Source of the DNA: Patescibacteria group bacterium | GTDB taxonomy: Bacteria > Patescibacteriota > Patescibacteriia > Patescibacteriales > WJLG01 | Assembly (NCBI GenBank): GCA_028707065.1 | Contig: JAQTUZ010000008.1 | Coordinates: 1 to 62,759, forward strand | DNA: 62,759 nt | Reading direction: 5' to 3' | Part shown: positions 8,467-62,759 of the stretch, one piece after another | Layout of the letters: each line of letters starts with the position of its first letter | Position numbering within the stretch: the first letter of the stretch is position 1 | Notes under the pieces: model-generated | Database searches by the model: none | What the model was told of the DNA's origin: nothing | The model's input: the letters and a program-made list of their open reading frames with translations, nothing else | Translations under genes and position numbers: made by a program

Positions 8467-10818
8467 TTAGTCCCTGTATATCCTTAAGCTGTTGCCGATG
8501 ACCGTGATATCCGACATGATCATCGCGAAGGCGGCGACGATCGGATTGGCAATTCCGAGGATAGCGAGCGGAATGGCAATGACGTTATAGAAGAAAGCCC
8601 AGAAAAGATTTTGGCGGATGATGCCGAAAGTCTTGCGGGCCAATTTTATCGCCTCGACGATCTTGATCGGCTCGTTTTTCATAATAATGATATTGCCGGC
8701 CTCTTTGGCAATATCCGCGCCCGCGCCCATTGCTATTCCCAGATCGGCCTGGACTAACGACGGCGCATCATTGATGCCGTCTCCGGCAAAGACCACGTTC
8801 TTGCCCGTATCTTGCAATTCTTTGACCTTTTTTTGCTTGTCCGCCGGCAGAACTTCGGCGAAGAAATTGTCGACGGCCAGAAGCGAGGCAGTGAAATGCA
8901 CGGCGGCTTCGCGATCGCCGGAAATGATGATCGATTCAATTCCCATTTTTTTCAAACTCCAAACCGCTTCCTCGGCGGTCTTTTTTAATTCATCTCTTAA
9001 GAGAAAAGCGGCGATAACATGGTCGGCTTTGGCCAGGAATAATAAGCTGCCGCCTTCCTCGGCTTTCTCTTGGCTTACTTTTTCCGCCCAGGTTTTATCG
9101 ATTTTATTTTCATCCAAAATCCTTAAGTTGCCCAAGAAATATTGGTCGCCATTAATTTTTCCGCCAATTCCCCGGCCAGGGTATTCAGTGATTCCTGCGC
9201 CGGACCGGGAAGAAAAATTCCCCTCTTGAGAGGGGTGGACCGCCGCCTCGGCGGGACGGGGTGTGTTAAAGTTGGTGGTTGCCGATAACAAATCTCCCGG
9301 CGGACAGCCTTCGTCGTTGGGCATTTTTTTCAAGGCCGGCAATTCGCCGCCGGCTCTTAATGGGAAATTATCAGCATCTTCTTTGTTTATTTGGCAGAAT
9401 TTTTGATCGCCCGAAGCGTAAATGGCGATCGCGCGGGAAAGGGGATGAGTTGAACCTGAAGCCAGATTGGCGGCGATTCTCAAGACTTCATCGGTTGAAT
9501 AATCTCGCGCCGGAATTACTTCATAAAGCTTCGGTTCGCCCAAAGTGAGCGTGCCGGTTTTATCGAATACTACGGTATCGATCTTTTTGGCTTTTTCAAA
9601 GCTCTCGCCATTCTTGATCAAGATCCCTTTCTTGGCACCAACGGAGGTGCCGACCATCACTGCGATCGGCGTGGCCAGGCCCAGCGCGCAGGGGCAGGCG
9701 ATGATCAAAACCGTCACCGCGTTGATAATGGCAATCGTGAAATCATGTTTAACCAATAACCAGCCAATTAAAGTCAAAATAGCTACGCCGATGACTGACG
9801 GGACAAAAATTCCCGAAATAGTGTCGGCTAATTTCTGCACCGGCGCCTTGAAGCTTTGCGCCTCTTCCACGGTTTTAATGATTTTGGCCAACACAGTATT
9901 GGAGCCGGTCTGGGTTATTTTTATTTTTAGCTGGCCGTCTTTATTGATCGTTCCGCCAAAAACATTTTCGCCTGATCTTTTGGCAACCGGCAAGCCTTCG
10001 CCGGTGAGCATTGATTCGTCGATATCCGATTGGCCTTCAATAATAATTCCGTCCAAGGGAATTTTTTCGCCCGGTTTCACCAAGGCAACTTCGCCAACTT
10101 GCACTTCCTCGATGTTTTTTTCTGCCGTTCCCCCCTGCGCGTTGATGATCAAAGCTTTCTTGACTCCCAATTCCATTAATTTTTTCATCGCATCCGAGGC
10201 ATGCCCCTGGGTTTTGGCTTCAAAATATTTGCCTAAAAGAATCAAGGCGGCGATGGAAGCGGCGGATTCGAAATACATCGGTTTATCGGCAAAGACCGCC
10301 CAAAGGCTGTAAAAGAAAGCCGTCAGCGTGCCGAGCGAGATGAGCGAATCCATATTGAATTGCCCGCGGATGATCTGCTTGCCGGCGCTCTTGTGGAATT
10401 GCCAGCCGAAAATAAAAACGATCACCGCGGTCAGGATGATTTGCAGCCAATCAGTATAGCCAAGATTTAAAAAGCTTCCGGGGATCTCCCATGCCCAGAT
10501 CATCCGGGATAAAAGGGGGGCGGTAAAGATCAGCGCCAAGATAGTTTTGTTTCGCTGCCAATTGCCGCTCGTCTTTTCGCCATGATGCATGTGGTCGTTC
10601 ATCGCGCCATCTTCCAAGACCTTGTAGCCGGTTTTTTTAATTATTTCCTTGATTTTGTCTAAGCCGATCTTTGCCTCGTCGTATTCGACATAAGCTTTGC
10701 CATTGGCATAATTGACGTCAGAGGAGATTATGCCGGTCTGTTTTTTCAAATTGCGATTGATATTCTGGGCGCAGGACGCGCAATCCATACCCCCAATGTT
10801 TAATGAGATTTTAGTCAT
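8467..10818 (-). CDS. copA: copper-translocating P1B-type ATPase
   Basis: [16 protein letters not shown] motif ([12 protein letters not shown]), DKTGTLT, SxHP (GSTHPLS), GDGINDAP; contains a ~55-aa extra segment in the N-domain including one PE-A repeat. Confidence 0.95.
9216..9268 (-). repeat. PE-A element, inside copA (in-frame, sense)
   Basis: aattcccctcttgagaggggtgg-accgccgcctcggcggga-cggggtgtgtta; translated on the minus strand as [17 protein letters not shown]. Confidence 0.9.
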
Positions 10819-10826
10819 ATTTTAAA

Positions 10827-10921
10827 TGTAATACTAATCCACGAATACATACTAATATAACGAATGCCCGTTTAAAATAATTCGTTATATTAGTATGTAT
10901 TCGTATTGAATTAGTATTACA
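10827..10921 (+). repeat. 95-nt R1-type hairpin element, copy 1 (upstream of copA)
   Basis: tgtaatactaatccacgaatacatactaatataacgaat ... attcgttatattagtatgtattcgtattgaattagtattaca; near-identical arms at 32287-32381. Confidence 0.9.
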
Positions 10922-10946
10922 ACTAAATATTTTTTTAAATAATTTA

Positions 10947-10985
10947 TTATTGAATTATAAATTTTCCCCAGACCATTTTCATCCC
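10947..10985 (-). pseudogene. orphan 3'-end fragment (12 codons plus stop) of a second allele/paralogue of gene 11127-12470
   Basis: 35 of 39 nt identical to 11127-11165. Both translate to GMKMVWGKFIIQ-stop. All four differences are synonymous or stop-to-stop (TGA/TAA). Confidence 0.8.
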
Positions 10986-10986
10986 T

Positions 10987-11019
10987 TTTTTGTTATCCTG
11001 AGCCCCGGGCGAAGGATCT
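10987..11019 (+). repeat. solo terminus of the TGTCATCCTGAG MITE family
   Basis: ttttgttatcctgagccccgggcgaaggatct; abuts the orphan gene fragment 10947-10985. Confidence 0.75.
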
Positions 11020-11102
11020 GTTCCTATCCCGCGCAAGATAACCAATGTTTTAAGTAATAAAGTTGTTCGTTGGCAATCATTATAATGACAAACTAAACAA
11101 AT

Positions 11103-11130
11103 CTGTAATTCTTAATTTGTAATTTGTCAT
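11103..11130 (+). repeat. R2 'TTTGTAAT-word' arm overlapping the stop of gene 11127-12470
   Basis: ctgtaattcttaatttgtaatttgtcat. Confidence 0.7.
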
Positions 11131-12470: not shown

Positions 12471-12477
12471 ATTTTAT

Positions 12478-12527
12478 ATTCCCCTCTAGAGAGGGGTGGA
12501 TCGCCCCTGGCGAGACGGGGTGTGTTA
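12478..12527 (-). repeat. PE-A element, intergenic (HMA-fusion gene / csoR)
   Basis: attcccctctagagaggggtgg-atcgcccctggcgagac-ggggtgtgtta; core identical to the copy at 12954. Confidence 0.9.
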
Positions 12528-12953: not shown

Positions 12954-13005
12954 ATTCCCCTCTAGCAAGAGGGGTGGATCGCCCCTGGCGAGACGGGGTG
13001 TGTTT
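12954..13005 (-). repeat. PE-A element, upstream of the cop promoter
   Basis: attcccctctagcaagaggggtgg-atcgcccctggcgagac-ggggtgtgtttt; near-identical to 12478-12527. Confidence 0.9.
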
Positions 13006-18448: not shown

Positions 18449-18482
18449 AACCACCCCCAGCCCCTCCTTGAAAAGGAGAGGA
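18449..18482 (+). repeat. PE-B element, intergenic
   Basis: aaccacccccagcccctccttgaaaaggagagg. Confidence 0.8.
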
Positions 18483-18517
18483 ACACATACCCTTATAATA
18501 TAGGGGGTTTGTTTTTC

Positions 18518-22263: not shown

Positions 22264-22312
22264 TAACACACCCTGCCTCGCTTACGCTCGGCACCCCTCT
22301 CGAGAGGGGACT
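22264..22312 (+). repeat. PE-A element (degenerate), intergenic
   Basis: taacacaccctgcctcgcttacgctcggcacccctctcgagaggggact; forms an inverted pair with 22341-22410. Confidence 0.8.
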
Positions 22313-22340
22313 TCGCAACGAAGAAATCAGCCGGTAAAAA

Positions 22341-22410
22341 GTCCCCTCTAGAGAGGGGTGGCAGTCCGCCGCCTTGTCCGCCTCGGGCGGAGGACTGACG
22401 GGGTGTGTGA
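22341..22410 (-). repeat. PE-A element with extended nested central hairpin
   Basis: gtcccctctagagaggggtgg-cagtccgccgccttgtccgcctcgggcggaggactga-cggggtgtgtga. Confidence 0.85.
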
Positions 22411-22448
22411 AAATCGGCATTAAGATTTTGCAAAATATAATTCAGAAA

Positions 22449-31285: not shown

Positions 31286-31416
31286 TGCGCATGATGCGAA
31301 TCTACGAATTGTTCGCGAATACTATGAATAGATTTAACGAATAACACACCCCGTCCGCGCGGCGCGGCCACCCCTCTCAAGAGGGGAATCAAAACGGTTC
31401 GCGGTATTCGCATTAT
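31286..31416. repeat. R1 hairpin (rpsD/rpoA spacer) with PE-A nested in its loop
   Basis: atgcgcatgatgcgaatctacgaattgttcgcgaatactatgaat ... [PE-A 31343-31389] ... ggttcgcggtattcgcattat. Confidence 0.75.
31343..31389 (+). repeat. PE-A element nested in the loop of an R1 hairpin (rpsD/rpoA spacer)
   Basis: aacacaccccgtccgcgcggcgcggccacccctctcaagaggggaat. Confidence 0.9.
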
Positions 31417-33241: not shown

Positions 33242-33251
33242 TTGATATGAA

Positions 33252-33300
33252 GTCCCCTCCGCGGGAGGGGTGGCGCCGCCTCGGCGACGGGGTGGGTTAC
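33252..33300 (-). repeat. PE-A element between rplM and rpsI
   Basis: gtcccctccgcgggaggggtgg-cgccgcctcggcga-cggggtgggttac. Confidence 0.9.
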
Positions 33301-33827: not shown

Positions 33828-33880
33828 ATTCCCCTCTCGAGAGGGGTGGACTCGCGCCGCGCGAGGACGGGGTGTGTTAC
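33828..33880 (-). repeat. PE-A element just after the rpsI stop
   Basis: attcccctctcgagaggggtgg-actcgcgccgcgcgagga-cggggtgtgttac. Confidence 0.9.
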
Positions 33881-37429: not shown

Positions 37430-39040
37430 ATGAAAAGGAGGGTGGCTATTTTTATCGCTTGCTGGTTTTTTGCCGGCGGCATCGTTCTTGCTTCGTTTTT
37501 GCCGAAAGACTGGCTGTTTTTCGGCCTTTATTATTTTAGCGCGGCGATAATATTTTCAACCATTGCCGTCGTGTGCTGGAAGAAGAAAAACACGCGCGCC
37601 ATTTTGATTTGGGCGGCTTTTTTGTTTTTGGGAATCTGGCGATTCTCGATAAGTTTGCCGATCGATTCACCAAATAATATTTGGCATTACAACGGCCAAA
37701 AAAGAGAATTGATCGGCCTGGTTTCTTCTGAACCGGCGACGAAAGGGAAAAGTCAGAAGTTAGAAGTATTTCCCCTCCTTTTAAAGGAGGGGGTAGGGGT
37801 GGTTATTGATAGGCAAGCCGATTCGATTGCAACCACTTCCCAGAACCACCCCCAAACCCCTCCTTCGGAAGGAGGGGGGATCCTTGAAAAGGAGGGGCTG
37901 GGGGTGGTTCGGGGTGAGGTTGCAGGCAAGGTCTTGGTCATCGCCGCCGCTTATCCGCAATATGATTATGGCGACGTTCTAAAAATATCTTGTACGCTTA
38001 AGCGTCCGGATAAGTTGGACGATTTTGATTATGAAAAATATTTGGCCGGCAAGGGAATCTATTCGACTTGCAACTTTCCCAAAATAGAAATTTTGTCAGA
38101 TAAAAATTTATCACCGCCGCTATTGGCAAAGAAAAAAAGCCTGACGCGTTTTAGCTGGCTTTGGGGCGGGATTTATCAAATCCGAAAAAAATTAAGCGGC
38201 ACGATCGATAACGGCTTGGCCGAACCGGAAGCCGGACTGCTTAAAGCTTTTATCTTGAACGATCCGACCGTGCCTGATGATTTGAGCGATATTTTCCGCC
38301 AAAGCGGCTTATCGCATATCGTCGCCATTTCCGGCACGCATATCAGCTTGGTGATCGCCATTATTTTTTTCTGCTTGTTATTCCTGGGTTTGAATCGCCG
38401 GCACGCTTTTTGGTTTTGCGTGCCCATTATTTTATTGTACGTGGTGATGGTTGGAGCGCCTGCCTCGGCAACTCGGGCGGGGATTATGGGTTTTTTGGTT
38501 TTGTTGGCTATGTATCTGGGACGTTTGGCGCGATTAGATTATACTTTGGCGCTCGCCGGCGCGGGCATGCTTTTGTTTAATCCGATGCTCGTTATCGCGG
38601 ACGCCGGATTCCAATTATCTTTTTTGGCCGTTCTAGGCATGATTTATCTTTACCCGATTTTTGATAAATGGTTATCAAGGTTTTACGAAATAAAAAACGT
38701 AACACACCCCGCCAAGCGAGGCGCTTGGCACCCCTCTCGAGAGGGGATTTTAAAAATAATTTGCCAGACGGCAGCACTGACGATCGCGGCGCAAGTTTTT
38801 ACCGCGCCGATCTTGATTTTCGGCTTTCACCAAATTTCGCTGGTCGCGCCGATCGCCAATCTGTTCGCGCTTTGGGCCGCGCCATTTATCATGATCACCG
38901 CTTTCATCGCCATGGGCCTAACCTTAATATTTCCCGCCGGTGCAATATATTTTTTCCTGCCCGCGGATATTTTAGTAAAATACTTGATTGCCGTCGCGCA
39001 AATTTCGGCGAGCTTGCCATTTGCTTATTGGAAGTTTTAA
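37430..39040 (+). CDS. comEC: ComEC/Rec2-family DNA uptake channel, lacking the metallo-beta-lactamase domain
   Basis: N-terminal OB-like region (GKVLVIAAAYPQYDYGDVLKISCTLKRP), competence domain (FRQSGLSHIVAISGTHISLV...PASATRAGIM); two repeat-derived in-frame inserts. Confidence 0.85.
   Translation: MKRRVAIFIACWFFAGGIVLASFLPKDWLFFGLYYFSAAIIFSTIAVVCWKKKNTRAILIWAAFLFLGIWRFSISLPIDSPNNIWHYNGQKRELIGLVSSEPATKGKSQKLEVFPLLLKEGVGVVIDRQADSIATTSQNHPQTPPSEGGGILEKEGLGVVRGEVAGKVLVIAAAYPQYDYGDVLKISCTLKRPDKLDDFDYEKYLAGKGIYSTCNFPKIEILSDKNLSPPLLAKKKSLTRFSWLWGGIYQIRKKLSGTIDNGLAEPEAGLLKAFILNDPTVPDDLSDIFRQSGLSHIVAISGTHISLVIAIIFFCLLFLGLNRRHAFWFCVPIILLYVVMVGAPASATRAGIMGFLVLLAMYLGRLARLDYTLALAGAGMLLFNPMLVIADAGFQLSFLAVLGMIYLYPIFDKWLSRFYEIKNVTHPAKRGAWHPSREGILKIICQTAALTIAAQVFTAPILIFGFHQISLVAPIANLFALWAAPFIMITAFIAMGLTLIFPAGAIYFFLPADILVKYLIAVAQISASLPFAYWKF
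37769..37910. repeat. cluster of three PE-B elements inside comEC (in-frame)
   Basis: tttcccctccttttaaaggagggggtaggggtggtt (reverse), gaaccacccccaaacccctccttcggaaggagggggga (forward), tccttgaaaaggaggggctgggggtggttc (reverse); translated ...FPLLLKEGVGVV...NHPQTPPSEGGGILEKEGLGVV. Confidence 0.85.
38699..38749 (+). repeat. PE-A element inside comEC (in-frame, sense)
   Basis: gtaacacaccccgccaagcgaggcgcttggcacccctctcgagaggggatt; translated VTHPAKRGAWHPSREGI. Confidence 0.9.
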
Positions 39041-39416: not shown

Positions 39417-39570
39417 GCTGATTTTTTACCTTTTTTGTCAATAGCCAAGTTTAAATGGAAAAGGTATAATTTATAGACACAGAGCATGGAACATAGAGCA
39501 AAGAGCATAAAATCCGAGAACTATTTTTTTTGTGTTCTTTGATCTTTGTTCTATGTTCTCCTACCAAACG

Positions 39571-41082
39571 ATGGATTTTCGTTTCAAATTAAGAATAGTC
39601 TGGATAGCTGCGCTGGCCGTGGCGGTTTTTGCGCTGGCGTGGCTGGCTATAATTCCTTTTGGCAAGATTACTTACTTGACAAATTTCAAGGGTTTTAATG
39701 ATTTCATCGGCAAGCTAACGCCCATGGAAAGAATTGTTGCCGAAAAAGACGGCACGCAAGATATTATCGGCGATCCGGCTTATTTTTCTTTGCGCACCCC
39801 GCGGCCATTTAATCAAGCTTTGCTTTCCGTAAAATTCCAAGTTGATCCGAATCTGCCGATCGTCGAGGCCGGAGTTTCCAAGGACGGGCGCACCTGGCAA
39901 TATGATTTGCAGCCGCTCTATAATGCTAAATTGGAAGAGTTGATGGAAAACTGGTTTGTATTAGATGATTCTGTTTTACCAGCGCTAACCCACCCCGCCT
40001 CGCCGGGCTCGGCACCCCTCCCAAGAGGGGACTCCACTGTTCTCCTGCAAAGAAATAAACAATTTGATACGATTGAAGAATTTTTAAAAAATCCTCCCGC
40101 GACCGACAAGATCGCTTTGTATAATTATGATTGGAAAACCGATTATTTATTGCCCGATTATCAGCCGCGGCAAGCTACCTCGACCATGTGCCGGCCGCTG
40201 GTCGGGGCTTATCAGTTTTATACCTACATTAAAAATGAGAATTTGTCCGATGACTTTGTTTTCCAAGATTTGAATAAAAATTTGGATCCGGACCCGATCG
40301 ATGTTTATGTTTATTATCGCGACAAATTGATTTCGAGCGAGCACCTCGACGACGATGGCATTGCTGTTGATAGCGGCGCGCAAAAACCGTGGCGGCATTT
40401 GAAGTTAGATTTGGCCAATTTGCCCGAGGGCGTTTATAAGATCACGGTGCGCGCTAATGGCGATATTGTGACGAGAACGATCACCACCGGACAAAGTAAA
40501 ATGGCTTTTATCAATGCTTTAGCGATTGCCGACGCTCCCGAAGTTTCCTGCGGCCGAAATTTTTTCACGGACGGGCGCACGCTGGCGGTTCAGACTTCGC
40601 ATCCGGATAAATTAGGCAAGATAACCATCAATAAAAATAACGGCAATTCATTTTCCGGCGTTGAGTTGAACATCGATCAAACTTATAAAATATTTACGGT
40701 TAACGATTTGCCGCCGGCTGGCAGTCAGATAATTCTTAATAATGACGGAATTTCGCTTTCCGGCGATGGGCTTTTTTCCCTGTCGGCCGAACAAATGATC
40801 GATCCGCGCGTTAAATCCGTTGATGCCAAATTCGATGCCGACCAGGAAGGCGTGGATTATGTTTTGGCGCGTTATACGCCGCCGGTCAAACAAGGCGATT
40901 GGCTGGTAGCGCAAGCTAACTTTGATCTAACCAACGCTTTCCGGATGTGGAATAAGTATTATTTTTTGATCTCCGCGCCCGGGTTATCCGCCAGCGATCA
41001 GCTTAACGATCAGGTGCGGATCAAGGAAATTAAGGTTGATTTGACCGGCACTTCGTTGTGGAAAAAAATATTTAAGAAATAA
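39571..41082 (+). CDS. hypothetical membrane-anchored extracytoplasmic protein
   Basis: Start trimmed to ATG 39571 (MDFRFKLRIVWIAALAVAVFALAWLAII); one TM then ~470 aa; carries one in-frame PE-A copy; precedes the GT-C cluster. Confidence 0.6.
   Translation: MDFRFKLRIVWIAALAVAVFALAWLAIIPFGKITYLTNFKGFNDFIGKLTPMERIVAEKDGTQDIIGDPAYFSLRTPRPFNQALLSVKFQVDPNLPIVEAGVSKDGRTWQYDLQPLYNAKLEELMENWFVLDDSVLPALTHPASPGSAPLPRGDSTVLLQRNKQFDTIEEFLKNPPATDKIALYNYDWKTDYLLPDYQPRQATSTMCRPLVGAYQFYTYIKNENLSDDFVFQDLNKNLDPDPIDVYVYYRDKLISSEHLDDDGIAVDSGAQKPWRHLKLDLANLPEGVYKITVRANGDIVTRTITTGQSKMAFINALAIADAPEVSCGRNFFTDGRTLAVQTSHPDKLGKITINKNNGNSFSGVELNIDQTYKIFTVNDLPPAGSQIILNNDGISLSGDGLFSLSAEQMIDPRVKSVDAKFDADQEGVDYVLARYTPPVKQGDWLVAQANFDLTNAFRMWNKYYFLISAPGLSASDQLNDQVRIKEIKVDLTGTSLWKKIFKK
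39986..40033 (+). repeat. PE-A element inside ORF 39571-41082 (in-frame, sense)
   Basis: taacccaccccgcctcgccgggctcggcacccctcccaagaggggact; translated LTHPASPGSAPLPRGDS. Confidence 0.9.
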
Positions 41083-48151: not shown

Positions 48152-48154
48152 AAT

Positions 48155-48305
48155 ATTCCCCTCCCTGGAGGGGTGCCGAGCCCGGCGAGGCGGGGTGGGC
48201 TATTCCCCTCCGCGGGAGGGGTGGACGCGCCGCGCGGACGGGGTGGGTTTCATTGGCGTTAATTCCCCTCCGCGGGAGGGGTGCCCGAAGGGCGGGGTGG
48301 GTTTC
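48155..48305 (-). repeat. three tandem PE-A elements upstream of the DUF559 gene
   Basis: Copies at 48155-48200, 48202-48251 and 48262-48305, each attcccctcc(ctgg/gcgg)gaggggtg-[GC palindrome]-cggggtggg(c/ttt). Confidence 0.9.
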
Positions 48306-48330
48306 AATAAAAAATTAATCAAGGAGGGGA

Positions 48331-48747
48331 ATGTTTAAAAGAAAAATATTACCATGCAACCCGAAGTTAATTGAGCTGGCCAAAAAATTAAGGAAGCAGG
48401 GGATTTTATCCGAAGTAATTTTGTGGAATCATTTGAAAGGCGGCAAACGGTTTGGCCATGATTTTCATCGCCAAAAACCAATTGATAATTATATTGTTGA
48501 TTTTTTCTCGCCCGACTTAATGTTGGCGATTGAAATCGATGGAATATCGCACGGATATAAATTTGATCAAGACGAAGAAAGAGATAGGCGGCTGGGGACG
48601 TTAGATATTAAAGTTTTAAGATTTACCGATAGCAGTGTTAAAAATAATTTGGACGGAGTTTTAGATGAAATAGATTGCTGGATAAAAGAAAATTTTCAAA
48701 CCCACCCTGCCACCGAGGCGGTGGCACCACTCCCAAGAGGGGAATAA
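48331..48747 (+). CDS. DUF559 (Vsr/restriction-endonuclease-like) domain protein
   Basis: LRKQGILSEVILWNHLKGGKRFGHDFHRQKPIDNYIVDFFSPDLMLAIEIDGISH...LDIKVLRFTDSSV; last 15 codons and the stop come from a PE-A repeat. Confidence 0.85.
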   Translation: MFKRKILPCNPKLIELAKKLRKQGILSEVILWNHLKGGKRFGHDFHRQKPIDNYIVDFFSPDLMLAIEIDGISHGYKFDQDEERDRRLGTLDIKVLRFTDSSVKNNLDGVLDEIDCWIKENFQTHPATEAVAPLPRGE

Positions 48748-48796
48748 TGCCCACCCCGTCCGGCCAGGGGCCGTCCACCCCTCCAGGGAGGGGAAT
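48698..48796 (+). repeat. two tandem PE-A elements at/after the DUF559 3' end, inverted relative to 48155-48305
   Basis: 48698-48745 aaacccaccctgccaccgaggcggtggcaccactcccaagaggggaat (supplies THPATEAVAPLPRGE-stop); 48749-48796 gcccaccccgtccggccaggggccgtccacccctccagggaggggaat. Confidence 0.9.
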
Positions 48797-53138: not shown

Positions 53139-53142
53139 AAAT

Positions 53143-53784
53143 ATGAAAAGAGTCTTTATAATTCATGGCTGGGAGGCCGATCCGGGAAGCAATTGGTTCC
53201 CTTGGTTGAAAGATGAGTTAATCAAAAAAGGCATTGAGGCCGAAGTTCCGACCATGCCGAATTCGGCGCATCCTCTGTGCGCCGAATGGGTTGCTTATTT
53301 AAAAAAGATCGTCGGCAAAACCGACAAAGATACTTTTTTAGTCGGTCACAGCTTGGGCGTAATCGCTATTTTACGTTATCTGGAATCAATGGCGGCGAAG
53401 GAAAAGATCGGCGGCGCGATTTTGGTCGCCGGTTTCCCTGAACCATTGCCGGCAAGCGACGGAGGAGATTTTTCCGAACTGAATAATTTTTTTGCTAAAC
53501 CGTTGGATTATGAAAAAATAAAAAATAATGTCAGTAATAGACCCACCCCGCCTCCGTCAGGGACGGAGTCACCCCTCCCGGGGAGGGGACAAATTTTTTC
53601 CGGCTTCGTGGCAATCCACTCCGACAATGATCCTTATGTGCCGCTGGCCAACGGAAAAATTTTGCAAAAAAAATTAGGCGCTGAGTTGATTGTGATTTCG
53701 GGCGGCGGCCATTTGAATGCCGGCGACGGATTTTTCCAATTTCCTTTGGTCTTAGAAAAGATTTTGCGATGGACTAATAATTAA
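53143..53784 (+). CDS. YdeN/RBBP9-type alpha/beta serine hydrolase, copy 2 (with PE-A insert)
   Basis: MKRVFIIHGW, GHSLGV, SDNDPYVPL, GGGHL; tandem paralogue of 52569-53138 with a ~19-aa extra segment encoded by PE-A. Confidence 0.75.
   Translation: MKRVFIIHGWEADPGSNWFPWLKDELIKKGIEAEVPTMPNSAHPLCAEWVAYLKKIVGKTDKDTFLVGHSLGVIAILRYLESMAAKEKIGGAILVAGFPEPLPASDGGDFSELNNFFAKPLDYEKIKNNVSNRPTPPPSGTESPLPGRGQIFSGFVAIHSDNDPYVPLANGKILQKKLGAELIVISGGGHLNAGDGFFQFPLVLEKILRWTNN
53539..53590 (+). repeat. PE-A element inside hydrolase copy 2 (in-frame, sense)
   Basis: agacccaccccgcctccgtcagggacggagtcacccctcccggggaggggac; translated RPTPPPSGTESPLPGRG; absent from the tandem paralogue. Confidence 0.9.
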
Positions 53785-53831: not shown

Positions 53832-56573
53832 ATGGAAACAGCATATCCGCTTAGTGAAAAAAAATTAGATAAGATTTTTAATCCGCAAACGATTGCGGTG
53901 ATTGGCGCTTCCGACCGCGAAGGCGGCGTTGGTAATGCGCTGATGAAGAATCTGATCGGCAATAATTTCGGCGGCATTGTCTATCCGGTCAATCCTAACC
54001 GCGCCAGCGTGCAGGGGATCAAAGCTTATCTGAGGATTGGCGATATTCCTGATAAGATTGATCTGGCGATCATTGCCACTCCGGCGCCGACCGTTCCGGG
54101 CTTGGCGCTCGAATGCGGACAGGCCGGCGTGGCCGGTTTGATCATCATTTCTTCCGGTTTTGATGAGATCGGCGCCAAGGGCAAGAAAATGAGCGAAGAA
54201 ATTTCCTCGATCGCCAAAGAATACGGCATGCGCGTCATCGGTCCGAATTGTTTGGGATTTATCCGGCCGTCGATCAATCTGAACGCCAGTTTTGCCAACA
54301 AGATGGCTTTGCCCGGCCATATCGCTTTTATTTCCCAGTCCGGCGCGCTCTGCACTTCGATTTTGGACTGGTCGATCAAGAACAATGTCGGTTTTTCCCA
54401 GTTCGTTTCGATTGGTTCGGCGATCGATATCACTTATCATGATTTGATCGATTATTTTGGTGATGACCCGCACACTTCCAGTATCTTGATCTATATGGAG
54501 TCGCTCACTGAAGCGAGGAAATTTATGAGCGCGGCGCGAGCATTTTCTCGCCAGAAGCCGATCGTGGTCTTGAAAGTCGGGCGCACTGAAGCCGGATCAA
54601 AAGCCGCCAAATCACATACCGGCGCCTTGACCGGCAATGATGCGATTTATGACGCGGCTTTTGAGCGCGCCGGCATCATCCGGGTTGATGGCGCGCTGGA
54701 TCTTTTCCATGTCGCCAAGATGCTTTCGATGCAGTCACGGCCGGCGGATAATCGCGTGGCGGTAATCACTAATGCCGGTGGACCGGGCGTAATTGCGGCT
54801 GATCGTTTGGCTTTGAAAGGCGGGCGGTTGGCGCCATTAGCCCACACTACCGTTTCCGAATTAAAAAAAATTCTGCCGTCGGCGGCTTCCACGGCCAATC
54901 CAGTGGATATTTTAGGTGATGCTGATCCGCACCGTTATCGCGCCGCGGTGGAATTATGTCTGGCTGATCCGAACGTTGACGCGGCTTTGATAATCTTGAC
55001 GCCGCAGGAAATGACCAGTCCGACCGACGTGGCGCGGCAGATCGTTTCGATCAAGAATAAAACCGGCAAGACCATGTTCGCGTCCTGGATGGGCGGCGAT
55101 GACGTGGCCGAAGGCCGGGAGATTTTGGAAAAAGGTCATATCCCGATCTACCGCACGCCGGAAGAAGCCGTGGATATATTTATGTACGTGGATAGTTATC
55201 GGCGGCGTCTGGAATTTTTGAAAGAAACTCCGGGTTCGGTGCCGCACGCTTTCAAGCCCAAGACGGAAAAAAATCGCGAGCTCGTGGAAAAAGTCATCGC
55301 GGACGGCCGGACAGTAATGACTGAAGCCGAGGCCAAGGAAATGATCGCTAATTATGGAATTCCGGTAGCCAAGAATGGCACGGCTAATTCGGCGTCTGAA
55401 GCCGGTGCGATCGCCGAAGGGATCGGAATGCCTGTGGTGATGAAAATTTTGTCGCCGGATATTTTACACAAGACCGATATCGGCGGCGTGAAATTGAATA
55501 TCAATTCGCGCGCTGAAGCGGAAGCGGCTTATCATGAAATCATGATTAACGTCCGGAAACCCACCCCGGCCTTCGGCCACCCCTCCCGAGGAGGGGAAGG
55601 CGCCAAGAAAGGCGCGCCCAAAGCCAAGATCGATGGTATTTTTATCGAGGCGATGACCAAGAAGCGCTATGAACTTTTGATCGGCTGCAAGAAAGATGAG
55701 GTTTTCGGGCCGGCGATAGTTTTCGGCATGGGCGGCGTGGCCGTGGAAGTCTTCCGCGACACGGCCGTCGGCTTGCCGCCGTTGAACATGTCTTTGGCTC
55801 TGAAGATGATTCAGGAAACGAAAATTTATAAATTACTCGAAGGTTATCGCGGCATGCCCGGAGTTGATATCGAATCGATCCAATTTTTGCTTTATAAATT
55901 CGCTTATCTGGTCGCTGACTTTCCCGAGATCAAGGAATTGGATATTAATCCTTTCGCGGTTGATGAGAACGGGGGAGTGGTGCTTGATGCCAAAGTTATT
56001 CTGGATGAAAAAGTCTTGGGCGTAAAACACAAACCATACGCTCATCTGGTAATTTCGCCTTATCCCAAAGAATTTGAAACAACTTTGAAGATCAAGGATG
56101 GCAAGAAGGTTTTTGTCCGGGCTTTGCGCCCCGAGGATGAAGAATTAGTGGCCGGATTCTTCCATCATCTTTCACCCGCGGCGCAAAAGGACCGTTATTT
56201 GCAAGTGATCAAAAAGATCGACCATGAGTTTTTATTGCGCTTCACTCAGAATGATTATGACCGCGAGATCGGTTTGGAAGCGGAAATTTCCGCGGGCGGC
56301 AAAAGCGAAATGATCGGCGCCGTCAGATTGGTCGTTGATCCTTATAACGAGAATGCCAAGCTGGCGGCGGTAGTCGTTGACCGCTGGCAGAATAAAGGCC
56401 TGGGCAGCCAATTGATCGATCATATGCTCTCGATCGCTAAAGCTCGCGGCATCAAAAAAGTCTGGGGAGAATTCTTCCCGACCAATAAACGGATCATCAA
56501 AATTTTAGAGAAACGAAATTTTACCATCAAAGCCCGGGGGAAGATTATGATCGGAGAGCTGGAACTAGAATAA
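53832..56573 (+). CDS. ADP-forming acetyl-CoA synthetase (alpha+beta) fused to a C-terminal GNAT acetyltransferase (Pat/PatZ-like architecture)
   Basis: IAVIGASDREGGVG CoA-binding N-terminus, KSHTGALTG His loop, ATP-grasp (PVVMKILSPDILHKTDIGGV), C-terminal GNAT (VVVDRWQNKGLGSQLIDHM). Confidence 0.9.
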   Translation: METAYPLSEKKLDKIFNPQTIAVIGASDREGGVGNALMKNLIGNNFGGIVYPVNPNRASVQGIKAYLRIGDIPDKIDLAIIATPAPTVPGLALECGQAGVAGLIIISSGFDEIGAKGKKMSEEISSIAKEYGMRVIGPNCLGFIRPSINLNASFANKMALPGHIAFISQSGALCTSILDWSIKNNVGFSQFVSIGSAIDITYHDLIDYFGDDPHTSSILIYMESLTEARKFMSAARAFSRQKPIVVLKVGRTEAGSKAAKSHTGALTGNDAIYDAAFERAGIIRVDGALDLFHVAKMLSMQSRPADNRVAVITNAGGPGVIAADRLALKGGRLAPLAHTTVSELKKILPSAASTANPVDILGDADPHRYRAAVELCLADPNVDAALIILTPQEMTSPTDVARQIVSIKNKTGKTMFASWMGGDDVAEGREILEKGHIPIYRTPEEAVDIFMYVDSYRRRLEFLKETPGSVPHAFKPKTEKNRELVEKVIADGRTVMTEAEAKEMIANYGIPVAKNGTANSASEAGAIAEGIGMPVVMKILSPDILHKTDIGGVKLNINSRAEAEAAYHEIMINVRKPTPAFGHPSRGGEGAKKGAPKAKIDGIFIEAMTKKRYELLIGCKKDEVFGPAIVFGMGGVAVEVFRDTAVGLPPLNMSLALKMIQETKIYKLLEGYRGMPGVDIESIQFLLYKFAYLVADFPEIKELDINPFAVDENGGVVLDAKVILDEKVLGVKHKPYAHLVISPYPKEFETTLKIKDGKKVFVRALRPEDEELVAGFFHHLSPAAQKDRYLQVIKKIDHEFLLRFTQNDYDREIGLEAEISAGGKSEMIGAVRLVVDPYNENAKLAAVVVDRWQNKGLGSQLIDHMLSIAKARGIKKVWGEFFPTNKRIIKILEKRNFTIKARGKIMIGELELE
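55557..55599 (+). repeat. PE-A element inside the ACD-GNAT gene (in-frame, sense)
   Basis: aaacccaccccggccttcggccacccctcccgaggaggggaag; translated KPTPAFGHPSRGGEG. Confidence 0.9.
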
Positions 56574-56972: not shown

Positions 56973-58676
56973 GTGAAAATAATTAGAAAAAATAAGGAAA
57001 TCGCGGTTTTTATCCTGTTTCTGATCATTGGGTTGGCCATTTACGCCAACTCTTTTGGCAACCAATTTTTTTGGGATGATGATGACGTGATCGTCAATAA
57101 TGTCTATGTCCAAAATTTTCAGCTTGATAAATTTTTCACTCAGAACGAAATTGCCGGCGCTTTCGGGCAAATTTCTAATTACTGGCGTCCGCTCCTGCTG
57201 GTTTCTTTCGCGCTTGATTATAAAATTTGGGGATTGGTTCCGTTCGGCTTTCATCTGACCAATACGCTGCTGCATATTTTGGCCGCTTGGCTGGTATTTA
57301 TTTTTTTATATCAACTGATCGAATTATTTTTGGCCAGGCAAACCGCCGCAGAAGAACCACCCCCAGACCCCTCCTTCCGAAGGAGGGGGGCGCTGCTGGC
57401 ATTTTTGCCGGCGCTGTTTTTTCTGATCCATCCGCTGCAGACCGAAGCCGTGACTTACGTTTCCGGCCGCGGCGATCCTTGGGCGGCCGTCTGGTCGCTT
57501 TTGACCTTGATTTTTTATGTTGTGTTTCGCAACAACGGCCGATGGCGCTTTTATTGGGGGGCTTTGATTTTTTTCGCCGCCGCGCTTTTAGTGAAAGAAC
57601 AGGCGATTTATCTGCCTTTGCTTATCCTTTTGCTTGAAGCGGTTTTTTATTCCATCGATTCCCGCAAAAAAATCATAAAACTTATCAAAAATGTCGCGGC
57701 TTTCTTTGCCTTGGCGGCGGCTTATTTTTTGGCGCGTTTCACTTTCTTGAATTTTAATCATTTTTTATCCGGGTCGGTTAATTTGGTAAACAGTGATTAT
57801 CATCGCAGTCTGGCGCAAAGAGCTTATACTTTTTGTTTGGTGAGCTTGGATTACCTGCGCTTGCTTCTGGTGCCGACCGGTTTGCACATGGAAAGAGAAA
57901 TTACGCCAGTGGAGCATTTTTGGTCCTGGCCGGTAATTACTTTTATCATTTTGGTTGCGGTGGCGGCGATCGTCGCGTTTAAAACCTGGCGGAAAAATCG
58001 GCTCGTGGCTTTCGGGCTCGGCTGGTTCGCCATTACTCTCTTGCCCCATGCCAATTTAGTGGAAACCAACCGGCCGATGTATGAGCACTGGCTTTATTTG
58101 CCTATGGTCGGTTTTTGGCTGGCGCTGTTTTGCCTGATTTTCATTTTGGCGCCGGCAGAGTCTCGCGTAGCGGACTCTGCCGATTTGCCGGGATTTCGGC
58201 AGAGTCCCCGAGGCGGGAGACTCTGCCGGAGCAAATCGATCAGAGTCTGGCTGAAGCGGATTTTTTGTGTTATGCTGATCGCTTGCGTGATTTTTTTCTC
58301 GTTTTTGACGATCAGGCGCAACCGCGACTGGCATGACCCGATAACTTTTTACGAAAAAAATTTAAGCTACGTGCCCGACAGTTTTATTGAGCGCACTAAT
58401 TTGGGCATGGCTTATGACGCTGTCGGACGCTTCGCGGAGGCGATCGTTCAATACCGAACGGCGATCGCCATCGCTGATATTTATCCGCAAGCGCATTATG
58501 ATCTGGCCAATAGTTTGGTGAACGTGAAGCAATACGACGAGGCGGAAAAGGAATATCGGCGCGCCATCGAGATGAGCCCCAAATTCGGCCTGGCGTATCA
58601 GAATTTGTACAATCTTTATATGTATCTTGGCGAAAAAGATAAAGCGGAAAAAATATTAAAAGAAATTAACAAGTAA
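56973..58676 (+). CDS. TMTC/PMT_2-like GT-C membrane glycosyltransferase with C-terminal TPR repeats
   Basis: GTG start; first loop NQFFWDDDDVIVNN; more than 10 TM; C-terminal TPR units (NLGMAYDAVGRFAEAIVQYRTAI..., AHYDLANSLVNVKQYDEAEKEYRRAIE...). Confidence 0.75.
   Translation: MKIIRKNKEIAVFILFLIIGLAIYANSFGNQFFWDDDDVIVNNVYVQNFQLDKFFTQNEIAGAFGQISNYWRPLLLVSFALDYKIWGLVPFGFHLTNTLLHILAAWLVFIFLYQLIELFLARQTAAEEPPPDPSFRRRGALLAFLPALFFLIHPLQTEAVTYVSGRGDPWAAVWSLLTLIFYVVFRNNGRWRFYWGALIFFAAALLVKEQAIYLPLLILLLEAVFYSIDSRKKIIKLIKNVAAFFALAAAYFLARFTFLNFNHFLSGSVNLVNSDYHRSLAQRAYTFCLVSLDYLRLLLVPTGLHMEREITPVEHFWSWPVITFIILVAVAAIVAFKTWRKNRLVAFGLGWFAITLLPHANLVETNRPMYEHWLYLPMVGFWLALFCLIFILAPAESRVADSADLPGFRQSPRGGRLCRSKSIRVWLKRIFCVMLIACVIFFSFLTIRRNRDWHDPITFYEKNLSYVPDSFIERTNLGMAYDAVGRFAEAIVQYRTAIAIADIYPQAHYDLANSLVNVKQYDEAEKEYRRAIEMSPKFGLAYQNLYNLYMYLGEKDKAEKILKEINK
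57354..57390 (+). repeat. PE-B element inside the TMTC-like gene (in-frame)
   Basis: gaaccacccccagacccctccttccgaaggagggggg; translated EPPPDPSFRRRG. Confidence 0.85.
58154..58227 (+). repeat. PE-F: two GGCAGAGTC...GACTCTGCC hairpins inside the TMTC-like gene (in-frame)
   Basis: ggcagagtctcgcgtagcggactctgcc (58154-58181) and ggcagagtccccgaggcgggagactctgcc (58198-58227); translated AESRVADSADLPGFRQSPRGGRLC. Confidence 0.85.
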
Positions 58677-58778
58677 AATTGTTCCATTGCTAAATTGTTA
58701 CATTGTTACGCGACGAATTAAACCGCACCAGATTATAAAAATCATTGCGCAACAATGTGACAATATGACAATTTAACC

Positions 58779-60428: not shown

Positions 60429-60430
60429 GG

Positions 60431-60459
60431 TTGACAAAAGTTGGATATAGTGGTAATGT
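60431..60459 (+). promoter_or_regulatory. extended -10 promoter for ORF 60514
   Basis: TTGACA-17 nt (ending TGG)-TAATGT. Confidence 0.65.
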
Positions 60460-60513
60460 TAATTGTTAGGCTGAACATTAAATCTAAAAACATTTTTCAG
60501 GAGGAGGTTCGTC

Positions 60514-60873: not shown

Positions 60874-60900
60874 TAAGCAAATTATAAATTTTTTATCCAG

Positions 60901-60929
60901 CTGGCATCTTGCGACGGTGCCAGTTTTTT
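60901..60929 (+). terminator. terminator after ORF 60514-60873
   Basis: ctggca-tcttgcgacgg-tgccag followed by tttttt. Confidence 0.7.
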
Positions 60930-60942
60930 ATTGATTAAATAT

Positions 60943-61027
60943 CTCGTAACCCATAGCTCATAACCCGTAACACTTTGACATTTATTTGACTGAAAAAGAG
61001 TTATGAGTTACGAGTTGCGGGTTATGA
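60943..61027. repeat. R4 full hairpin upstream of lepA
   Basis: ctcgtaacccatagctcataacccgtaacac ... gagttatgagttacgagttgcgggttatga. Confidence 0.85.
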
Positions 61028-61104
61028 AATGGCGGTTGACCGATTAGCAAAAAAACCTTAATATTAAAGTCTGGAAGGCAAGAAGCCTTCTTTATTTATC
61101 AATC

Positions 61105-62759
61105 ATGAAGAACATCAGAAATTTTTGCATCATCGCCCATATCGACCACGGCAAATCCACTTTTTCCGACCGGCTGCTGGAATTGACCGGCACGATCGAA
61201 AAGCGGAAAATGCGCGAGCAGTTCCTCGATAAATTGGATCTGGAGCGCGAGCGCGGCATCACCATCAAATTAAAACCCGTCACCATGCATTGGGAGGGGT
61301 ATATTTTGAATTTGATCGATACGCCCGGGCACGTGGATTTTTCTTATGAAGTTTCCCGCTCGCTCGCGGCCGTGGAAGGCGCGATTTTACTGATTGACGC
61401 CACCCAGGGAATTCAGGCGCAGACTTTAGCTAATTTATATTTGGCAATCAATGAAAATTTGACTGTCGTGCCGGTGATCAATAAAATCGATCTGCCGGCC
61501 GCTGATGTGCCGAAAGTTAAAAAGGAAATAATTCATCTGATCGGCTGCAAAGAAGAAGAAATTTTATTGGCTTCGGGCAAAACCGGCGAAGGCGTGGAAC
61601 AAGTCTTGCGCGAAGTGATCGCCAAGGTTCCGGCCCCGGATAAATTTGTTAGATGTTCTGATTTGCCGCGTGGAATATCCGGCGCTAACCCACCCCGTCA
61701 GGCCGACGCGGCCTGCCACCCCTCCCGAGAGGGGAATCCCACCCGGGCGCTGATCTTTGATTCCAATTATGACGAATACAAAGGCGTGGTGGCCCATGTC
61801 CGCGTGATGGATGGCGCTTTTAAAAAAGGCGATAAGATAAAATTGTATAACACCAAAACCGTCAGTGAAGCTTTGGATGTGGGAATTTTTAATCCCGAAT
61901 ATCAGCCGACCGGAGAATTAAGCACGGGCGAAGTCGGCTATATCGTGACCAGCTATAAGAACGTTACTGAATGCGCGGTCGGCGATACGGTTACGACCGT
62001 GGCTGATTTTGATAAGATCGAACCGTTGAAAGGTTATGCCGAGGTCAAACCCATGGTCTTTGCCGGAGTTTTTCCCCGCGAAGGCGATGATTTTCAGGAA
62101 TTGCGCGAAGCCATGGATCGCTTAAAATTGAACGACGCCTCGCTCTCTTATGAACCGGAACATTCCGAAGCTTTGGGTTTTGGTTTCCGCTGCGGCTTTT
62201 TGGGGCTTTTGCATCTGGAAATTTTTCAAGAAAGATTGAGCCGCGAATTCAATTTGAATCTGATCGTTACGGTGCCAAGCGTGGCCTATAAAGTTTTCAA
62301 AAGAAACGGCGAAGAAGTAATTATTCGTACGCCGCAAAAACTTCCTGGCCCAACCGAGATCGACCACGTTGAAGAACCTTGGGTAGCGCTCGACGTCATC
62401 GTGCCCAAAGATTATATCGGCAAAGTAATGGAACTGGCCGTGGATAAAAAGGGAATTTACAAAAATACCGAGTATCTTGACGAGTCGAGAGTAATTTTGC
62501 ATTATGATCTGCCCATGGCTTCGATCTTGACTGATTTTTATGATAAGATAAAAAGCGCGAGTTCCGGATTTGCTTCGATCAATTATGAATTTTTGGATTA
62601 TCGTCCGGCTAAAGTGGTCCGGCTGGATATTTTGGTGGGCGAAGAGCCGATCGAAGCATTATCGACGATCGTTTATGAAGATGAGGCTTTCCGGCAAGGA
62701 CGGGCCGTGGTGGAAATTTTGAAAGATACCTTGCCCCGGCAGATGTTTGTGGTTAAATT
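61105..62759 (+). CDS. lepA: translation elongation factor 4 (LepA), 3'-truncated by the window end
   Basis: Not in the ORF track because it is open-ended. IRNFCIIAHIDHGKST, DTPGHVDF, NKIDL, then ALIFDSNYDEYKGVVAHVRVMDG...; carries an in-frame PE-A copy at the G-domain/domain II junction. Confidence 0.95.
   Translation, partial: MKNIRNFCIIAHIDHGKSTFSDRLLELTGTIEKRKMREQFLDKLDLERERGITIKLKPVTMHWEGYILNLIDTPGHVDFSYEVSRSLAAVEGAILLIDATQGIQAQTLANLYLAINENLTVVPVINKIDLPAADVPKVKKEIIHLIGCKEEEILLASGKTGEGVEQVLREVIAKVPAPDKFVRCSDLPRGISGANPPRQADAACHPSREGNPTRALIFDSNYDEYKGVVAHVRVMDGAFKKGDKIKLYNTKTVSEALDVGIFNPEYQPTGELSTGEVGYIVTSYKNVTECAVGDTVTTVADFDKIEPLKGYAEVKPMVFAGVFPREGDDFQELREAMDRLKLNDASLSYEPEHSEALGFGFRCGFLGLLHLEIFQERLSREFNLNLIVTVPSVAYKVFKRNGEEVIIRTPQKLPGPTEIDHVEEPWVALDVIVPKDYIGKVMELAVDKKGIYKNTEYLDESRVILHYDLPMASILTDFYDKIKSASSGFASINYEFLDYRPAKVVRLDILVGEEPIEALSTIVYEDEAFRQGRAVVEILKDTLPRQMFVVK
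61686..61737 (+). repeat. PE-A element inside lepA (in-frame, sense)
   Basis: taacccaccccgtcaggccgacgcggcctgccacccctcccgagaggggaat; translated ANPPRQADAACHPSREGN just before ALIFDS. Confidence 0.9.

Follow-up and report, generated by a model that had tools for sequence, protein, structure and literature searches.

Palindromic repeats inserted in frame in Patescibacteria genes resemble BoxC and flank a DUF559 endonuclease gene

INTRODUCTION

The BoxC repeats of Escherichia coli were first described in the 1990s and were re-described by Maher and co-workers in 2000 as potential intrastrand triplexes (PITs) (PMC4666352). Holder (2015) counted 3610 copies in 262 proteobacterial genomes, together with many G/C-rich motifs in cyanobacteria, and gave the TMECO consensus CCCTCNCCC-N3-6-GGGNGAGGG-N3-GGGNGAGGG (PMC4666352). 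In E. coli, BoxC/TMECO copies are always intergenic and are not tied to mobile elements; they have been linked with local genomic instability, and earlier tests of BoxC/PIT repeats revealed no promoter, terminator, or regulatory activity (PMC4666352). The word “endonuclease” is absent from the text of the 2015 study (PMC4666352). Here, we analyze a related repeat, PE-A, in a stretch of 62,759 nt from a Patescibacteria group bacterium (contig JAQTUZ010000008.1 of assembly GCA_028707065.1, positions 1 to 62,759; “the window”), and its association with genes of the DUF559 endonuclease family.

Other palindromic repeats are known to lie in frame within genes, including intragenic repetitive extragenic palindromic (REP) sequences and the Rickettsia palindromic elements (RPEs) (PMC3733652). 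RPE-4 and RPE-6 belong to the CGTC REP superfamily, for which no transposase is known and which is characterized by a CGTC tag, an 8- to 9-bp stem starting with A-T, a 4- to 5-nt loop, and a CCA tail (PMC3733652). Vsr-like homing endonucleases such as I-Bth0305I, which are relevant to the gene described here, sit in introns or inteins or between split inteins (PMC3239194, PMC2677866).

RESULTS

PE-A has the architecture of BoxC-type repeats

PE-A is a double hairpin of approximately 50 nt (43 to 70 nt) and constitutes the long form of the repeat; a short form lacks hairpin 1. The 18 copies that we extracted share one register: a box 1 of AAC(A/C)CACCCCG, a variable G/C-rich palindrome (hairpin 1), and a second hairpin composed of CACCCCTC, a 2- to 6-nt loop, GAGGGG, and a trailing A-A/C/T-T. 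This agrees with the layout proposed in an earlier note on the window, which ended hairpin 2 with GAGGGG-AAT. The pattern CACCCCTC-N2-8-GAGGGG matches the window exactly 17 times, versus 0.00 expected from 100 dinucleotide-preserving shuffles. With one degenerate copy that carries a single mismatch (CCACTC), the total is the 18 that the note had counted, nine on each strand (Table 1). A covariance model, which the note had called for, was trained solely on copies from other genomes and recovered all 18, 17 of them at full length (E ≤ 4e-5) and the copy with the long hairpin 1 (22340-22408) as a partial match (E 7e-4). Its candidate at 55076-55119 was a false positive.

Single-strand folding with a tool that models hairpins only predicted two hairpins in four of the five copies tested, and folding Z-scores reached about -3 to -5 for three long-form copies with a longer hairpin 1. 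No Rfam family matched the window at its gathering score, with chance-level matches only, around the three-copy array (Table 1). A Flavo-1 match in one other locus (L064) lies elsewhere in that locus and is unrelated to the element.

On the C-rich strand, the core of the repeat reads as box 1 (A-M-M-CACCCC), a linker, and a CCCCTC-loop-GAGGGG-A-W-T hairpin; on the G-rich strand, every copy reads CCCCTC-loop-GAGGGG-linker-GGGGTG. The third block, GGGGTG, mirrors the purine arm GAGGGG and places a T across from the A-T pair, which is what a purine-motif third strand should have. BoxC/PIT/TMECO repeats share this order of C-rich arm, loop, complementary G-rich arm, loop, and second G-rich mirror block, and they likewise have a third-block T where the duplex has A-T (GGGTGAGGG in the E. 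coli copy that was read, compared with GGGGTG). Both kinds of repeat occur as dispersed near-identical copies, often in inverted pairs, with copy numbers that vary between close strains. They differ in the length of the blocks, which in PE-A are 6 to 7 nt (CCCCTC(C), (G)GAGGGG, and GGGGTG) as opposed to the 9-nt stems of the TMECO consensus, and in the second loop, since all 18 PE-A copies have a 10- to 40-nt palindrome in place of the 3-nt loop 2. In addition, TMECO is intergenic and has no link to mobile genes, whereas the copies described here also lie in frame within genes and flank DUF559. The short forms have loops as short as those of the published motifs (loop 1 of 3 to 6 nt and loop 2 of 3 nt; 1 to 6 nt for ITxF). 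The three-block match and the third-block T make PE-A a variant whose second loop has turned into a hairpin. Judged by its sequence architecture, PE-A belongs, as the Patescibacteria long form, to a pan-bacterial family of the BoxC/PIT/TMECO type, in which triplex formation is only potential. Because its loop 2 exceeds the loop limits of 1 to 6 nt in the published motif search, the long form would be missed by surveys that apply them.

The repeat is found in many phyla and turns over between relatives

We scanned one genome per bacterial species for CACCCCG-N8-30-CACCCCTC-N2-6-GAGGGG and obtained at least 162 matches in at least 120 contigs, from isolates and metagenome-assembled genomes (MAGs) of many phyla. 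The isolate hosts include Chryseobacterium, Flavobacterium, and Pedobacter (Bacteroidota), and the MAG hosts include Verrucomicrobia, Cyanobacteria, Planctomycetes, Clostridia, Nitrospira, and Patescibacteria. Every match listed contains a palindrome at hairpin 1 and keeps the flanks A-M-M and A-W-T-t. The base composition of hairpin 1 tracks that of the host (A/T-rich in Chryseobacterium), and the boxes are constant. In 30 distinct same-length copies from other genomes, 99.1% of cells pair, and three of four pairs in hairpin 1 show changes on both sides. Across 159 copies, conservation of the flanks extends no further than 3 nt on the upstream side and 4 nt on the downstream side. Mechanically called ORFs of other phyla were too unreliable for counts of genic location or orientation.

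The element is therefore not private to this lineage. The earlier note had not recognized the family as one already described; this view does not hold, as the core has the BoxC/PIT/TMECO architecture (PMC4666352) and the element spans phyla. When raw sequence strings of the element from the candidate phyla radiation (CPR) were used to search the literature, eukaryotic primer matches were the only result. Turnover is evident between close relatives: the window and L282, its closest relative (~86% identical in lepA), differ at four or more sites in whether the element is present. Intergenic empty sites in relatives are too diverged to align.

The repeats are the inverted ends of a DUF559 endonuclease cassette

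Among the matches listed, DUF559 was the sole family to recur in the 440 ORFs that flank elements. Genes for GxxExxY or four-helix-bundle proteins had been a first guess for the neighbors and were dropped. In all nine of the pattern-selected loci in which DUF559 occurs, as in the window, a copy of the element lies no more than ~70 nt upstream of DUF559, and it is inverted in eight of the nine. A sense copy or its remnant is found at or after the DUF559 stop codon in eight of these loci and in the window, sometimes encoding the C terminus. Hairpin 2 is outermost at the cassette ends, and box 1 adjoins the gene.

For an unbiased set, we collected 80 DUF559 loci by protein similarity alone, 74 of which had full flanks. 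An antisense copy was present within 200 nt upstream of DUF559 in 50 of the 74 and a sense copy at or after the stop codon in 47, so that 34 loci had the element on both sides and 63 on either, against a background of 0.21 copies per kb in the same loci. These flanking copies are mostly of the short form. The elements are thus the terminal inverted repeats of a small cassette encoding a DUF559 (YcjD-like, Vsr-fold) endonuclease. The earlier note had treated DUF559 as one of the genes hosting a copy, which is correct in that the copy forms its C terminus, and had missed the tie between the element and this gene.

The association extends to Proteobacteria, for which DUF559 loci were retrieved with the 3hrl sequence of Neisseria and examined with a sequence-agnostic detector. 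These loci have the same architecture in lineage-specific sequence, for example, ACCCTCTCCCC-CGA-CCCCTCTCCCGC-loop-GCGGGAGAGGGG and CCCCTCTCCC-type blocks. Such elements were found upstream in 30 of 73 loci and downstream in 37 of 73, versus a background of 0.59 per kb. In Neisseria, the DUF559 flanks consist of a CTCTCTCCC-loop-GGGAAAGAG hairpin and a mirror block, GAGAGAGGG, with no CGTC-tagged stem-loop. A pairing of DUF559 with CGTC REPs (dRS3) in this genus was considered and rejected, as the flanks are box-plus-hairpin elements.

A profile of eight element-flanked DUF559 proteins, that of the window included, matched PDB entry 3hrl (5e-26) and I-Bth0305I (3r3p; 0.003); the fold is Vsr/PD-(D/E)XK. 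Within the motif, the acidic and histidine residues show no variation. L282 has the gene at the locus that it occupies in the window, and the gene is under purifying selection (dN/dS of 0.054 between the two). No identical sequence is on record for the window protein. From its sequence, DUF559 looks like a working nuclease. The adjacent array differs between the two genomes, with three copies in the window and four in L282. The hairpin 1 sequences are not the same, both sides of one stem pair have been flipped, and a symmetric deletion of 2+2 nt affects one copy.

Two further observations concern the cassette. At 48310-48333, the DUF559 start codon follows ..AAGGAGGGGA, which overlaps the start (..GGGGAATG) and looks like half of a hairpin 2. 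Whole element-DUF559-element cassettes also occur, apparently in frame, in Eco57I/type ISP-like methylase genes (Table 1); in L017 and L196, which belong to different phyla, the cassette is located just 5' of a conserved ..DY(V/I)YAVLHSP(S/T)YREKY motif.

BoxC and ycjD in E. coli

In E. coli K-12, ycjD adjoins fabI, a TMECO/BoxC copy lies 170 nt downstream, and the C terminus of YcjD (..SPSP-stop) is encoded by a degenerate box. ycjD is present in ~3350 of 5426 complete E. coli genomes (~62%). In O157:H7, it is replaced downstream of fabI by a TetR regulator/resistance-nodulation-division (RND) efflux locus (fabI-sapF region, L283 and L284), as it is, by match pattern, in most of the other ycjD-negative genomes. 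Homology in the fabI region breaks ~40 nt before BoxC. In an evenly spread sample of E. coli genomes, the median number of BoxC-like places per genome was 13 with ycjD (n = 37) and 3 without it (n = 23; Mann-Whitney p 3e-9). That BoxC copy number tracks DUF559 in E. coli is suggestive only.

Copies within genes are clean in-frame insertions

All seven of the PE-A copies that the earlier note had placed in frame within genes lie in uninterrupted ORFs. When short forms are included, at least 11 copies in the window are in frame within genes. Six of the seven hosts were identified with Pfam (CopA, ComEC, DUF559, Ser_hydrolase, ACD+GNAT, and LepA), and a Pfam search of ORF 39532-41082 found no family. 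In LepA, CopA, ACD-GNAT, ComEC, and the second serine hydrolase (hydrolase-2), conserved domains align on both sides of the insert, and the comparison with element-free orthologues that the note had suggested revealed clean indels in all five.

LepA from the window has 27 aa more than 593-aa orthologues at 84 to 90% identity, and insert-free orthologues read VPAPx-ANEGx-PTRALIFDS at the site. The window and five relatives carry an insert of 27 to 30 aa there, one relative has a nested 63-aa insert, and two others have different repeats at the same point. Judged against solved LepA structures, the insert stands in for ~5 residues between the G domain and domain II. The nearest LepA relatives all come from uncultured Patescibacteria. 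In the ACD-GNAT gene, 51 to 54 nt are missing from two syntenic relatives, L121 and L282; this is the sole clean empty site at the DNA level, with 9 extra nt and no duplication. The element in hydrolase-2 is part of a 22-aa segment missing from the L121 orthologue. The CopA segment is missing from orthologues at 75 to 80% identity (P0125, P0128, and P0130) and from more distant ones, and the insert stretch aligns to neither solved CopA structure. The long-form segment of ComEC is missing from six orthologues (P0255, P0257, and P0259-P0262), and other ComEC relatives have element variants at the same site in other frames. The short form in the tetratricopeptide repeat (TPR) gene shows no indel relative to L121, whose sequence also starts with GAACCACCC there.

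The insertion sites are linkers or variable stretches, as at the LepA domain junction and in a variable stretch of CopA, and the peptides encoded by copies at one protein site vary in frame and sequence (LepA, CopA, and ComEC). The same insertions recur with intact ORFs in independent assemblies (LepA, P0002-P0006; CopA, P0122, P0124, and P0132; ComEC, P0252 and P0253), which excludes a reading of the genic copies as assembly artefacts or pseudogene marks; favored by nothing beyond the apparent metagenome origin of the sequence (the closest protein relatives being all uncultured), it is further contradicted by the seven uninterrupted host ORFs with domains aligning on both sides of the insert, and we give it practically no weight.

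The RPE-like behavior claimed in the earlier note is thus borne out: a palindromic repeat lies in frame in conserved genes and is absent from orthologues. Of its wording “in-frame colonization of essential genes,” the first part stands and “essential” does not, as lepA and copA are dispensable in model bacteria. Like RPEs and intragenic REPs, the repeats are in-frame, presumably translated palindromic insertions in conserved protein genes whose ORFs stay intact, and one protein site is hit repeatedly. CGTC...CCA tags frame hairpin 1 in 10 of the 18 window copies, as in the CGTC REPs, two families of which correspond to RPE-4 and RPE-6, which is a lead and not demonstrated membership; the stems are 4 to 9 bp long and G/C-rich, with no A-T pairs at the start, and the other 8 copies and most short forms lack the CGTC tag. 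RPEs differ in that, by description, they lack the box-plus-hairpin mirror-repeat core, in being known from one genus as opposed to many phyla, and in their length of 100 to 150 bp, versus 43 to 70 nt for PE-A.

Further insertions and paralogues were seen in or beside these genes. The CopA homologue P0127 (836 aa) has a second, nested insertion after the element-encoded segment, flanked by a duplicated NFANGS that resembles a target-site duplication from another element; P0131 has part of this insertion. Two tandem serine-hydrolase paralogues occupy 52569-53784 in the window, with the element only in copy 2. Of the two, copy 2 is the one orthologous to the only such gene of L121 (65% identity, versus 45%); L282 lacks both hydrolase genes and the TPR gene. 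At 58159-58222, the TPR gene contains a palindromic insertion of 64 nt that belongs to another family (..CGGCAGAGTC...GACTCTGCCG..) and is missing from the L121 orthologue, and a relative of this palindrome follows the ACS stop codon in L121.

Short forms occur in both orientations

Five short-form copies were found in addition to the copies in the earlier list (Table 1). They consist of AACCACCCC, 2 to 4 nt, and CCCCTCC-loop-GGAGGGG, with linkers such as TAA, CAA, and AGA. Three of them form an in-frame block in the N-terminal domain of comEC, in the orientations -, +, and -, and comparison with orthologues identified the block as an insertion. Relatives encode peptides such as IPLPGGVPSPARRGG at the comEC site, which is the antisense translation of the long form. 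These antisense copies, short forms in the window and long forms in relatives, contradict the claim that in-frame copies have one orientation relative to translation. Stop codons can be ruled out as a cause of sense-only orientation, given the antisense in-frame copies and the averages of 2.83 and 2.5 open frames per copy in the two orientations. Because both orientations are mostly stop-free, the seven sense copies out of seven in the window reflect a small sample and not a property of the element.

Other features of the window

A UvrD/PcrA-type helicase encoded at 22374-24956 has an RNase_T (DnaQ-like exonuclease) domain at residues 496 to 648, inside the span of its UvrD_C match (307 to 834). 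An inverted repeat 5' of lepA (~60940-61050; ..CATAACCCGTAAC...GTTACGAGTTGCGGGTTATG..) is absent from L282. The ORF for ribosomal protein S11 (29906-30523) comprises 205 aa, with the S11 domain starting at residue 94, which reflects either a miscalled start or an N-terminal extension.

TABLE 1 Copies of the repeat and the DUF559 gene in the window, with cassettes found in methylase genes of other loci
Feature	Position (nt)	Strand	Context
Long form	9217..9266	-	Sense, in frame in copA (8467-10818, -); E 2.9e-7
Long form	12478..12525	-	5' leader of HMA-DsbD gene (11127-12470, -); GAGGGG ends 10 nt before ATG
Long form	12954..13003	-	Intergenic; hairpin 1 identical to copy at 12478
Long form	22266..22312	+	Degenerate box 1 (CACACCCTG); 3' of YgjP-like gene; convergent pair with 22340..22408
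Long form	22340..22408	-	Hairpin 1 extended to 39 nt; 5' of UvrD-like helicase
Long form	31344..31389	+	rpsD/rpoA gap, sense
Long form	33251..33297	-	rplM/rpsI gap, antisense
Long form	33828..33877	-	Directly 3' of rpsI stop, antisense
Long form	38702..38749	+	Sense, in frame in comEC; peptide THPAKRGAWHPSREG
Long form	39988..40033	+	Sense, in frame in ORF 39532-41082 (no Pfam family)
Array, three head-to-tail long forms	48155..48302	-	Directly 5' of DUF559, antisense; left inverted cassette end
DUF559 (YcjD/Vsr-fold) endonuclease gene	48331..48747	+	Pfam 2.1e-24; last 16 codons = copy 48700..48745
Degenerate long form	48700..48745	+	DUF559 C terminus (THPATEAVAPLPRGE-stop); part of right inverted end
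Long form	48749..48796	+	Directly 3' of DUF559 stop; absent in L282
Long form	53541..53591	+	Sense, in frame in serine hydrolase copy 2
Long form	55559..55599	+	Sense, in frame in ACD-GNAT; within clean 51-nt insertion
Long form	61688..61737	+	Sense, in frame in lepA, G-domain/domain II junction
Short form, BoxC-like	37769..37804	-	Antisense, in frame, comEC N-terminal domain; covariance model E 1e-4
Short form	37844..37880	+	Sense, in frame in comEC
Truncated short form	~37884..37918	-	Antisense, in frame in comEC; weak covariance-model match, E 0.14
Short form	57355..57391	+	Sense, in frame in TPR protein gene 56973-58676
Degenerate short form	18449..18484	+	Intergenic; E 0.04
Methylase-gene cassettes	L017 ~2505-4166; L069 711-3542 and 3938-5716; L196 ~1270-1900		

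DISCUSSION

By analogy, a system like that of REPs and the REP-associated tyrosine transposases (RAYTs), built here on a Vsr-fold nuclease, probably offers the best explanation as a whole; we put its probability at about 55%. As in REPtrons, a conserved nuclease-type gene, of which the sequence seen contains one copy, has inverted palindromic repeats at its flanks, and the same repeat is dispersed as many more solitary copies while the gene stays at a fixed locus under purifying selection. The differences are that the flanked gene is a PD-(D/E)XK Vsr-fold DUF559 and not an HUH/Y1 transposase, that the repeats have no GTAG tag, and that an activity of DUF559 on the repeats is only putative. The reasoning that connects DUF559 with the repeats follows the logic that linked RAYTs to REPs. 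MITEs (miniature inverted-repeat transposable elements) are likewise short, noncoding, structured, and dispersed and can be read through in frame. Unlike a MITE, which has a terminal inverted repeat on either side of a transposase gene since deleted, a solitary copy described here corresponds to one cassette end, and the profile of flanks reveals no target-site duplication.

In the mechanism that we propose, the conserved single-copy DUF559 nuclease would recognize the box and hairpin, possibly as a folded triplex, and would nick at the element. Repair or replication after the nick would then copy solitary elements to new sites, as in RAYTs with REPs. Insertions could land anywhere, and those in genes would be kept by selection when they are a multiple of 3 nt, stop-free, and located in tolerant linkers or surface loops. 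The retained copies would be translated as segments of 13 to 27 aa rich in Pro, Gly, Ser, and Arg.

Several points weigh against this mechanism. Binding or cutting of these repeats by a DUF559 protein is putative, and we know of no route by which a lone PD-(D/E)XK nuclease copies DNA to unrelated sites. With the detector used, 11 of the 74 DUF559 loci have no element. No target-site duplication or defined junction emerged from the 159-copy flank profile, and the compensatory changes in hairpin 1 can come from arm-to-arm templated repair without selection. In E. coli, the correlation between ycjD and BoxC is confounded by phylogeny, the two groups being different phylogroups, and O157:H7 has 12 BoxC places without ycjD. 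One relative has a weak Y1-transposase gene upstream of ACS, in the place of DUF559 in the window and L282. Finally, a homing endonuclease that targets pre-existing repeats would give the same flanking pattern.

The last point leads to the main alternative, in which the repeats spread or arise alone, through hairpin or triplex replication errors or templated repair, and DUF559 is a free-standing homing endonuclease that inserts between inverted copies, so that the repeats are its landing pads and not its products. The relation of DUF559 to the homing endonuclease I-Bth0305I, with which it shares a related catalytic fold (the 3r3p match), fits this alternative, as do the complete cassettes found in different phyla at a shared position of Eco57I/type ISP-like methylase genes, which is typical of homing genes, and the persistence of BoxC in E. 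coli lineages without ycjD. Holder (2015) also ties the motifs to local instability, with no link to mobile elements (PMC4666352). Vsr-like homing endonucleases are not described with hairpin/triplex terminal repeats or with dispersed solitary repeats (PMC3239194, PMC2677866). The window DUF559 shares its locus with that of L282 and is under strong purifying selection, as would be expected of a domesticated gene more than of an actively homing one. The expected empty site, a gene-less divergent pair with abutting box 1 ends, was not seen, the divergent pairs being 50 to 190 nt apart, and the spread of identical copies to unrelated sites would be left unexplained. We consider this alternative unlikely but worth serious attention.

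REP-like units moved by a Y1 transposase of the RAYT/IS200 type, with the DUF559 link being secondary, seem distinctly improbable. The CGTC REP superfamily has the CGTC...CCA tags that 10 of 18 copies carry (PMC3733652), and a relative has the weak Y1_Tnp gene mentioned above; yet the untagged copies, which include 8 of the 18 and most short forms, and the box-plus-hairpin flanks of Neisseria DUF559, which are not CGTC-tagged, do not conform to this expectation. No Y1 transposase was present in the 30 window ORFs scanned or among the recurrent neighbors in at least 120 loci. The Y1_Tnp match, weak and IS200/RAYT-like, is to a 181-aa gene at 1559-2104 of the contig encoding the LepA homologue P0007, and the repeat in that lepA is a different one (SPQPSPYKGEGVRV..).

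We find it harder still to believe that the repeats are modules selected for a host function, as RNA or DNA structures that regulate expression, determinants of mRNA stability, or ribosome-binding sites, with the genic copies serving as selected peptide linkers. The box and hairpin sequences are conserved across phyla, one copy lies 10 nt 5' of the HMA-DsbD start codon, and the GGAGGGG arm, also where it precedes DUF559, looks like a Shine-Dalgarno sequence. Copies are nevertheless found in every context and orientation, come and go between close relatives, and encode, at one and the same site of a protein, peptides in different frames and of different sequence, and the earlier BoxC/PIT tests detected no promoter, terminator, or regulatory activity (PMC4666352).

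If the REP/RAYT-like explanation is correct, it may apply widely. It is possible, though we advance this tentatively and at less than even odds, that BoxC/PIT/triplex-type repeats are generated and spread throughout Bacteria by DUF559/YcjD proteins as dedicated, mostly domesticated enzymes. They would form a second REP/RAYT-like system, in which a PD-(D/E)XK nuclease recognizes folded box-plus-hairpin (possibly triplex) DNA, and their activity would account for dozens of in-frame peptide insertions into conserved proteins in small Patescibacteria genomes. DUF559 is among the families enriched at predicted programmed inversions (PMC9881135), which the inverted flanks would explain. We found no paper that links DUF559 or ycjD with these repeats and no published description of the cassette in searches on DUF559 with repeats, Vsr-like homing endonucleases, and CPR palindromic elements. 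The association between DUF559 and the repeats is general, is apparently unreported, and is a more interesting result than the reading given in the earlier note.

Descriptions of BoxC/PIT/triplex repeats go back to the 1990s, and copies have been counted across hundreds of genomes; to our knowledge, neither a function nor a mobilizing enzyme has been assigned to them. Similarly, we know of no role for DUF559 (E. coli YcjD; PDB 3hrl), a widespread protein with a nuclease fold. The flanking pattern joins these two unknowns, repeats and DUF559, into one question that is testable in E. coli. For the Patescibacteria, a selfish repeat keeps introducing length variation into conserved proteins such as LepA, CopA, and ComEC, and this variation matters for annotation, phylogenetic markers, and structure prediction.

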